Positions 11,001-14,000 of a DNA stretch of 64,000 bases are shown one piece after another; positions within the stretch are counted from its first letter, which is position 1; the number at the start of each line of letters is the position of its first letter. The position numbers were made by a program. Location of the stretch: the NCBI GenBank assembly GCA_000165345.1, contig CM000435.1:736001-800000 (forward strand), in the 5' to 3' direction.

Positions 11001-14000
11001 AAAGATAACGAGACTATCACTTCTAATTCAAATTTCTTTTCTGCAATTCTTAGCAAAATTAAAAATGGAGTGAAGTTAACCTCAGATAAACAAGCTATAA
11101 GTGAAAGTAAAGAAGAAACTTTTGAAAACAATGAGTTGGAAGCCGAAACTGTAGAAGATGAAGTTCTAACTATGAAACAAGATTCCACTCCTGAACATAA
11201 TCAGTTCTTGGACAAATAGAAATCTTTTAACCCTGAATTAAAATAAAAATTATTATCCCTTTGTATAGTCCATGCCAGTAGGAAAAATTAAATAAAGTTA
11301 AGTAATCATTACAGATTGTTTTAATCGAGTGTTAAATTAGTTTTTTAAATATCAACACAATGATAAGTGAAACTGAGATAAAAACTAGCGTGACCAATGT
11401 TATTCTACAACAGAAGGTAGTGTTATTATTTGTACCGATAACTTCCTGTACCTTTCTGTTCAGGTTAAAGATGTCGGTTGTAGCAAATTCTGTAGTATTC
11501 TTAATTTCTTCAATACTTATGTTGTGTGCTTTAGCCTCGCGGCCAAGCTGTGCTGCTTTATCTGCGATTCTTAACGCCATATTTCCTACTTCTTTTATAT
11601 CTTCATCTATTCTTCTATTTTCCAAACTCCATTCATTAATTTTAGTTTTATCTGAATCACCAATTTCCCTATGCTCAACTTTGTTTGCTGAATCAGGTTT
11701 AAGCAAGAAATCATTTAAAGTTGTTGAATGTGTAATTTTTGAAAATGGATCGGTAAATAATTTATTAAATCTCGATTCAGTTATTTCAATAAACTCCTTT
11801 TCATAATTTTCAATATCAATGTACTTATTATCATCTTTATTCAGCTGATTAATGCGCAAACTGGAAGAATACTTATTGTAAATTTTCCTTAATTCCCGAA
11901 TTTCTATTTTCATTTGACTAATTAAATCCACCAACTTAATTTTTGTCAACAACTTTGGGTGATTCTCGTCGTTTTCAAGATGATCTAAAATTGTGTAAGT
12001 TGTATTATATAATTCAAACAATTTAATCTTGTGTTTTATATATTCTTGTTCAATGCTTGAAACTTCATCAATTTTCACATCAGATTCACATAGGAGTTCA
12101 ATGTGTTTAACACGCTTTAAAAGGTCTTCAATTTCATTAAAACCCCTTGTATACTTCCAGTCCATATTAAATTAAAAAAAAACTTTGCAAAAATATTTGT
12201 CATAAATGGTTGAAACAAAATATATGGATGGATGTTAATTGAACAATTAAACGGGCAAAAAGATTACAAATTTAGCTTTGTTACTCAAATTCCGTCAAAA
12301 GTTAAATGAGGATTATCCAAATTCTGATAGCAACTGATAGTTATATTTTTAAAGTTTTAATATCAGGGCAATATCTACTATGATGATTAAGATCATCTTC
12401 TGGGGTATTCACTCTAGTTGAAGCGCCAGAAGAAAATTTACTTTCATATTGATGTAGTTTTACACGCCATTCTCTATAAAGGTTGTCAAATTCTCTTTTT
12501 GTCAACCTTGTATCACATTTCGGAGTTCTGGGGTCTTCGGATGATCTTTTCTCTAAAGGAACTTGATTTATATAATTCTTGTACTCAGGTAGACTTTTCC
12601 CAATTGCTATCTGCTTTAACCGAGAAATCATTCTTGACGTCAAGGGCTCCTCAGATGCCTTTAGTTCAGTATTCTGACGTACAAAATCGCTCTTATAATT
12701 GCCATACTTTATTAATTCAGTGGATGGGAGTTTCTCAAGAAGAGATGTCAAATCAGAAAATGAAAAAAATCCCTTGTTTGGTGGTGGATCAACCTCATTA
12801 TAGATGTCAAAGTTTTTGCTATCCAAAGTGAAAAGAGAATTTTTGGACTGTATGTATTTAGAGCCTGAATTCAAATTCTTTGCTTCACTCTCTTTTACCT
12901 CGAGCTTGGGTAAATTAGGATGAACCTCAATTGCTGATACAAAATTCTTTTCTTTGACTTTCTTCCCTATCAGCAGTAATATCGATACTTCATAAACTCT
13001 GTGTGGCGTCATCGGATTGCAAAATAATGGAGTGTTGTTATCCAAATTGATCATAAATAATGTATACCACGAGTCAGCTATACGCAGTTATTTTACTCAT
13101 ACAAAACCAGCGATCAGTATCCCGGCGGCATACACAATTTTTTTTACTTTATTAAAATTAACAACAGAAAAGCCTTATAAACAAGTTATAAAAGACTTAA
13201 ATTATTGAATAAAATAGACTAAATATTCAGCAACCTATTTAATTTTAAATATACTAAGTTTACCTGGCTTCATATTGAATCATCTTTCTCGTCCTCTTTT
13301 TGTATAAAATCCTGCATCCGCAAGTTCGGCATCTAACTGCTGCGCCGTGAGATAGCAAACTAACATCAGCACCGCATTCTAAATAATGAAATCATTCAAA
13401 ATTATAACTTTTTAAAAAACTTACCACCACAAATATATGTAACTGGTTCAACCATGCCTTTATTTACATTAACTCCGTTGTTATCTAAAATTGAGGTTGT
13501 TTTACTTTCTGCACCATTCATTGTATTGAAGTTACTTTTTAAAGTTTTAAGAAACCCTCTCAATACAATATATTTTGAATTCCCAAGACTTTAATAGGCT
13601 AGTATAGGCAAAGTCGCGCAAAAAGTCCTAGTTAAAAATATTCATTAGAACAATGCAAATTGGGTACCTACGAGGGAAAACAGACAGTATTGTAAATACC
13701 GCAAAGACACGAACGTTTTGTTTTTTTTTTTTTTTATAACAATTTCAAATTATTTAAGACGTGACATTTAATACCCAAAACTCAATGTATCCATTGCAGG
13801 CCATTAATTCTTATTATTACATATTTTCCCAAAAAAAGAACTAAACTTTTTTTTCCTCAGTTATTCAATGGCCACAATTGAAATGGATTCTGTCGAAGGA
13901 TTTCAGCTGAAGCATGGCTCATTGATTGGCGGTGCAAGGAAAGGCTGTTTATGCTTATCTCTAAGACTTTCAGTTTTTTTACATGGGCTGCTGAATATTA

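Follow-up and report, generated by a model that had tools for sequence, protein, structure and literature searches.

The two-exon gene for RNA polymerase common subunit Rpb12 (RPABC4) in Cryptosporidium parvum and the conservation of its phase-1 intron among apicomplexans

Rpb12 is a universal and essential polymerase subunit. Representatives in solved polymerase structures include plant NRPB12, which is subunit 12 of Pol II, IV and V (51 aa; PDB 8hil_L, 7eu0_L), yeast Rpb12, also known as Rpc10 or ABC10-alpha (70 aa; PDB 1i3q_L), and human POLR2K (58 aa; PDB 5iy6_L). The yeast and human proteins share a CX2C...CX2C zinc ribbon, the motif R-I-(L/M)-x-K-x-R-T and a C-terminal (F/Y)-(E/D)-A-R. 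The yeast protein carries in addition a variable N-terminal tail of approximately 28 residues, whereas the plant protein lacks such a tail. Among the apicomplexans, the Rpb12 genes of Besnoitia besnoiti and Theileria equi contain two phase-1 introns, one in the Glu codon of the sequence ICG|ECG and a second before the C-terminal (M/V)(M/V)QYEAR. Here we compare with these systems a small split gene found in C. parvum, within a window of 64,000 nucleotides that represents the whole stretch of DNA analysed.

The gene occupies 13260..13521 on the minus strand. The coding part of its first exon (13425..13521) begins with ATG at 13521..13519 and holds codons 1-32 and the first base of Glu33, encoding a poorly conserved N-terminal tail and YIC(31)G, the start of the first zinc knuckle. 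The coding part of exon 2 (13260..13378) extends from the last two bases of Glu33 to Arg71, followed by TAA at 13262..13260, and it provides Cys34, Cys49 and Cys52 along with a 17-residue basic C-terminal tail. Between the two lies a predicted spliceosomal intron of 46 nt (13379..13424, minus strand) in phase 1, of the form GTAAGT...TTTAG, which reads GTAAGTTTTTTAAAAAGTTATAATTTTGAATGATTTCATTATTTAG from 13424 to 13379. It is inserted inside the Glu33 codon (G|AA) and interrupts the first CxxC knuckle, with Cys31 on one side and Cys34 on the other; its G+C content is 15%, compared with 39% for the exons. The preliminary description had proposed a two-exon gene with a 46-nt GTAAGT...TAG intron at this location, and both the coordinates and the product were reproduced exactly: joining the reverse complements of 13425..13521 (97 nt) and 13260..13378 (119 nt) gives a 216-nt coding sequence from ATG to TAA, and its 71-aa translation agrees letter for letter with the peptide reported before. 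The length of the intron is not divisible by 3, and the unspliced frame continues as ...YICGGKFFKKL and then meets a stop, for a total of 39 residues.

The gene was initially regarded as unlisted because a mechanical six-frame ORF list gives only two fragments at this location, one of 53 aa (13402..13563, minus strand) and one of 32 aa (13260..13358, minus strand). That view is correct for the ORF track but not for GenBank, where the identical 71-aa protein is deposited for four C. parvum assemblies (QOY40642.1, KAL5367639.1, WKS79011.1 and WRK33497.1); no difference separates these entries from the present gene, and the deposited C. parvum gene models cover exactly the same 262 nt. A segment of 2,262 nt with the gene at its centre is likewise identical in the C. 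parvum chromosomes CP141124.1 and CM109967.1. In the IOWA-ATCC assembly the gene is probably CPATCC_003524 on chromosome 7, a tag deduced from the neighbouring accessions (QOY40640 is CPATCC_003522 and QOY40643 is CPATCC_003525). Annotated orthologues exist in C. hominis, C. canis, C. andersoni and C. xiaoi. A literature search combining Cryptosporidium parvum and RPABC4 returned no paper. As for other genes at the same place, a reading of the plus strand was rejected, where just a 46-aa ORF (13454..13594) lies opposite the gene and the minus-strand codon-position pattern explains the conservation. No tRNA gene was predicted by ARAGORN in the whole 64-kb window, and no Rfam family reached its gathering score there.

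The assignment of the spliced peptide to the Rpb12 family, made in the preliminary description, is borne out by several comparisons that agree with one another, namely a Pfam profile, the Rpb12 chains in PDB and a set of invariant residues. The 71-aa peptide clearly matches PF03604 (Zn_ribbon_RPAB4, "DNA directed RNA polymerase, 7 kDa subunit") with 58 bits, where the gathering score is 24 (E 7.6e-16); residues 29-61 align to profile positions 1-32 of 32, and the match corresponds to a zinc-ribbon core at 13320..13431 on the minus strand, intron included. When all PDB chain sequences were searched, every significant match (14/14) was Rpb12/RPABC4 or archaeal Rpo12/subunit P. Eukaryotic Rpb12 chains gave E values from 8e-17 to 5e-10, among them plant NRPB12 (8e-17), human POLR2K (1e-11) and yeast Rpb12 (4e-11), with Schizosaccharomyces pombe and Komagataella chains also matched, and archaeal subunit P/Rpo12 gave 2e-5 to 2e-4. 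Judged by these sequence comparisons, the family match is far beyond chance at its best values in both Pfam and PDB, and the product is of the eukaryotic rather than the archaeal (RpoP/Rpo12) type.

A different small zinc-ribbon protein that merely resembles Rpb12, for example an archaeal-type RpoP-like paralogue, would be suggested by NCBI names such as "putative transcription activator" and by weak sub-threshold Pfam matches to HypA, Fin, DUF1451 and LysW (E 0.05-0.14). Those matches, however, fall far below the gathering scores of their own families, whereas PF03604 exceeds its threshold by 34 bits. The scores of archaeal Rpo12 and eukaryotic Rpb12 differ by 12 orders of magnitude in favour of the latter, and the identity with plant NRPB12 extends over all 48 residues of the core, up to and including the C-terminal YEAR that is specific to the family. 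We therefore give this reading almost no credence. The identical protein is named in GenBank either "RNA polymerase archaeal subunit P/eukaryotic subunit RPABC4" or "putative transcription activator", and the latter appears to have been carried over from the old Iowa II entry and not to reflect a tested function. The name "transcription activator" is found on the old C. parvum Iowa II entry, on the C. canis entry and on one newer C. parvum entry, although the protein is a clear Rpb12 orthologue.

In detail, Rpb12 of C. parvum resembles plant NRPB12 most closely among the solved structures. The alignment of the two is nearly continuous from EPVTY(I/V)CG(E/D)CG to ..QYEAR, and the loop between the knuckles reads SLLSHGAAV in Cryptosporidium and TLKSGDVI in the plant protein, with one extra residue in Cryptosporidium, which is extra in comparison with other apicomplexans as well. 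The zinc ligands of the CX2C...CX2C pattern are C31-G-E-C34 and C49-R-T-C52, with their codons at 13431..13429 (Cys31), 13376..13374 (Cys34), 13331..13329 (Cys49) and 13322..13320 (Cys52) on the minus strand. All four are invariant in an alignment of apicomplexan, yeast and human proteins, and so are Y29, I30, E33, R48, G53, R55, I56, K59, R61, A70 and R71. The yeast and human sequences in this alignment have lengths that agree with the PDB chains; the two proteins are comparable in size to the C. parvum protein, and their identity to it is approximately 40%. The basic tail of the family, R-I-L/M-x-K-x-R-T...(F/Y)-(E/D)-A-R, is present as RILYKKRT...YEAR with the stop codon directly after it, and its alignment with the PDB chains continues to their final residue. 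The C-terminal "FEAR" given earlier needs correction, as the protein ends in YEAR; F is the residue of the yeast and human proteins, which end in FEAR/FDAR. An AlphaFold2 model built on a shallow alignment of 7 sequences is of low confidence (mean pLDDT 58.5). A Foldseek search of PDB with this model places Rpb12 chain L in all of the top 11 positions, with weak scores (E at least 2.5e-3, rmsd ~8.6 A) that depend on the sequence. The predicted structure is thus concordant with Rpb12 and is not counted as independent evidence, and the assignment of the fold is one of homology and not of independent structure prediction.

The evidence for the intron is comparative. Orthologous loci of C. hominis, C. 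canis, C. xiaoi, C. andersoni, Besnoitia besnoiti and Theileria equi were examined by a brute-force search, at each locus, for GT..AG removals that reproduce the protein. The gene models of these orthologues are predictions themselves, but the argument uses the DNA of the loci and is independent of how they were annotated. In each of the seven species, C. parvum included, a single GT..AG removal at ICG|ECG reproduces the protein, with the GT..AG boundaries kept and the exon 1 boundary equal in the six other species. The position of the intron and its phase (1, in the Glu codon) are the same in the five Cryptosporidium species, Besnoitia besnoiti and Theileria equi, while its length is 46 nt in C. 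parvum and C. hominis, 50 nt in C. canis, 59 nt in C. xiaoi, 67 nt in C. andersoni, 423 nt in Besnoitia besnoiti and 117 nt in Theileria equi. Within Cryptosporidium the lengths differ among species and are never a multiple of three, and reading through the intron leads to a stop or a frameshift in all five species. Nucleotide identity to C. parvum among these species is 58-64% in the intron compared with 76-86% in exon 2, whose protein is nearly identical, and G+C is 15-27% in the intron compared with 38-42% in the exons. The mean G+C of C. parvum introns is 22% (PMC4637869).

The most telling evidence is the pattern of substitutions in exon 2. C. parvum and C. andersoni differ at 29 of its 119 nt, and 25 of these 29 differences fall at codon position 3 of the spliced frame, with a single amino acid change. 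Similarly, 12 of 17 nucleotide differences from C. canis and 18 of 24 from C. xiaoi are at codon position 3. This third-position bias indicates that exon 2 is under purifying selection precisely in the spliced frame. The intron is supported, at the level of sequence, by a position and phase conserved in seven apicomplexans together with the codon-position pattern of exon 2. The splice-site motif by itself is uninformative, since GTAAGT occurs 13 times per strand in the 64-kb window against approximately 22 expected from base composition; the evidence lies in the restoration of the frame and in the conservation.

A search of read assemblies for a spliced transcript contig returned no Logan source for the 71-aa product, and the only short-read contig found for the locus (Logan contig SRR17231405, 1,762 nt) is unspliced and spans the divergent neighbour. 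It looks genomic because that neighbour is also on it, and hence is probably uninformative on splicing. The IOWA-ATCC reannotation, which is the depositor of the identical 71-aa model, describes its introns as 100% RNA-seq supported, a statement made in aggregate and not for this gene specifically (PMC8744675). The shortness of both pieces and the unspliced state of the only contig could be taken to mean that the locus is a decayed pseudogene remnant, or a chance juxtaposition of short ORFs, from which no spliced mRNA is made. Against this stand the one amino acid change for 29 nucleotide changes relative to C. andersoni, which signifies strong purifying selection in the spliced frame, the intact state of every family-defining residue, and the splice boundaries kept in seven species. 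Furthermore, Rpb12 is essential in yeast, and the homologue search gave no second PF03604 protein for C. parvum. The probability of a remnant or a chance arrangement is on this evidence practically negligible, and a functional split Rpb12 gene is the preferred reading.

The two other apicomplexan genera share the first intron with Cryptosporidium and differ in the rest of the gene. Their Rpb12 proteins are 61-63% identical to that of C. parvum. The second intron before the QYEAR terminus, located at 1611..2171 of the Besnoitia locus sequence and 1266..1324 of the Theileria equi locus sequence, is absent in all five Cryptosporidium species, and the introns of Besnoitia besnoiti and Theileria equi (59-561 nt) are longer than those of Cryptosporidium. 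From these sequences the absence looks like a lineage-specific loss in which the first intron was kept, and it fits the well-documented intron loss in Cryptosporidium (PMC8744675). One may speculate that the phase-1 intron is ancient and was selectively retained in the intron-poor Cryptosporidium lineage, and that regulated retention, leaving the truncated 39-aa ORF, perhaps tunes the supply of a subunit common to the three polymerases; we consider this reading very unlikely, and the conservation of the intron could equally be simple inheritance. A separate observation concerns a Babesia duncani protein of 111 aa ("bifunctional DNA-directed RNA polymerases I..."), which is Rpb12-like up to ...RILYKKRAYR and then continues with 53 unrelated residues. 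The point of divergence is the site of the second intron in Theileria equi and Besnoitia, and to judge from the sequence the deposited model has probably been translated across an intron that was not recognised, so that the genuine QYEAR terminus is missing.

The position of the start codon deserves separate discussion, as the older Iowa II annotation (XP_001388394.1/EAZ51587.1) has the same intron and exon 2 but begins at Met23 (13455..13453). Its sequence equals residues 23-71 of the 71-aa product, and it was deposited as a spliced 49-aa protein, flagged partial under the uninformative name "transcription activator, partial"; it has been superseded by the 71-aa model. A start at Met23 would agree with the poor conservation of residues 1-22 between Cryptosporidium species, with the predicted disorder of the tail (pLDDT below 50 at residues 1-3 and 15-23) and with the 51-aa plant orthologues, which are almost without an N-terminal tail. 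On the other hand, Met1 (13521) is the first in-frame ATG downstream of an in-frame stop, and although the nucleotides of the tail diverge by 30-45%, its frame is open in each of the five Cryptosporidium species. The stretch from residue 1 to the zinc ribbon contains no further Met in C. andersoni and C. xiaoi, and C. canis lacks one past Met4; translation in these species must therefore include a tail of comparable length. The yeast protein has a tail of much the same length, and Met1 is used by all four recent C. parvum annotations. Met1 thus appears to be the better-supported start from the sequences compared, and a 49-aa protein is improbable. Taking all of the above together, we regard it as nearly certain that 13260..13521 on the minus strand is the C. 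parvum gene for Rpb12/RPABC4 (ABC10-alpha), with one predicted 46-nt phase-1 intron and with Met1 as the probable start of a 71-aa product.

The surroundings of the gene are those of the C. parvum genome. The window has a G+C content of 31%, in line with the approximately 30% of the genome (PMC4637869), and exact-sequence look-ups identify the neighbours as C. parvum proteins, namely an importin (15866..19249), a membrane protein (13868..14659) and a SNARE-like protein (11332..12165). The order of the divergent membrane protein, Rpb12, the SLBP-domain and the SNARE-like genes is kept across Cryptosporidium. An intergenic spacer of 346 nt (13522..13867) lies between the Rpb12 gene and the divergent membrane-protein gene on the plus strand, and presumably holds the promoter and the 5' UTR. 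On the other side, a downstream spacer of 205 nt on the minus strand (13055..13259) precedes the SLBP-domain gene and presumably holds the 3' UTR, including an AATAAA at 13153..13148 (minus strand) as a putative polyadenylation signal. The SLBP-domain gene (12341..13054, same strand) encodes 237 aa with a match to PF15247 (SLBP_RNA_bind, histone-mRNA stem-loop-binding) of 74.9 bits. For this protein the C. hominis assemblies deposit lengths of 223, 236 and 237 aa, which is a discrepancy in the start codon. The membrane protein, which has no Pfam match, shows a comparable start-codon discrepancy; assemblies of C. parvum and C. hominis give it either 263 or 258 aa. Two genes upstream of Rpb12 is a SWIB/MDM2 ORF of 263 aa (14977..15768, plus strand; PF02201, 28.8 bits against a cut-off of 25), which is found at the same place in C. 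hominis.

Based on these features, the following working of the gene can be proposed. Transcription would proceed from the 346-nt spacer common to Rpb12 and the divergent membrane-protein gene, and the spliceosome would then remove the 46-nt intron, which would join the two halves of the first CxxC knuckle and restore the frame. The 7.8-kDa product is expected, by homology, to fold round one zinc ion by means of C31, C34, C49 and C52, and as an orthologue of the plant, yeast and human proteins it would take its place as ABC10-alpha, the subunit common to Pol I, II and III. The basic C-terminal tail may anchor the subunit on the polymerase core, as homology to the solved polymerases suggests.

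The gene is real, correctly interpreted and ordinary, and it is already annotated. Its biological weight is limited to that extent, the model being part of current Cryptosporidium annotations. The value of the finding is methodological, in that a split gene of 71 aa, which a six-frame ORF track is not able to display, was recovered from raw sequence. The case shows that a comparative analysis of intron position and codon position can stand in for RNA-seq in the validation of a gene model. There is also a practical point for the genus, as several deposited orthologues of this polymerase subunit are still named "transcription activator".
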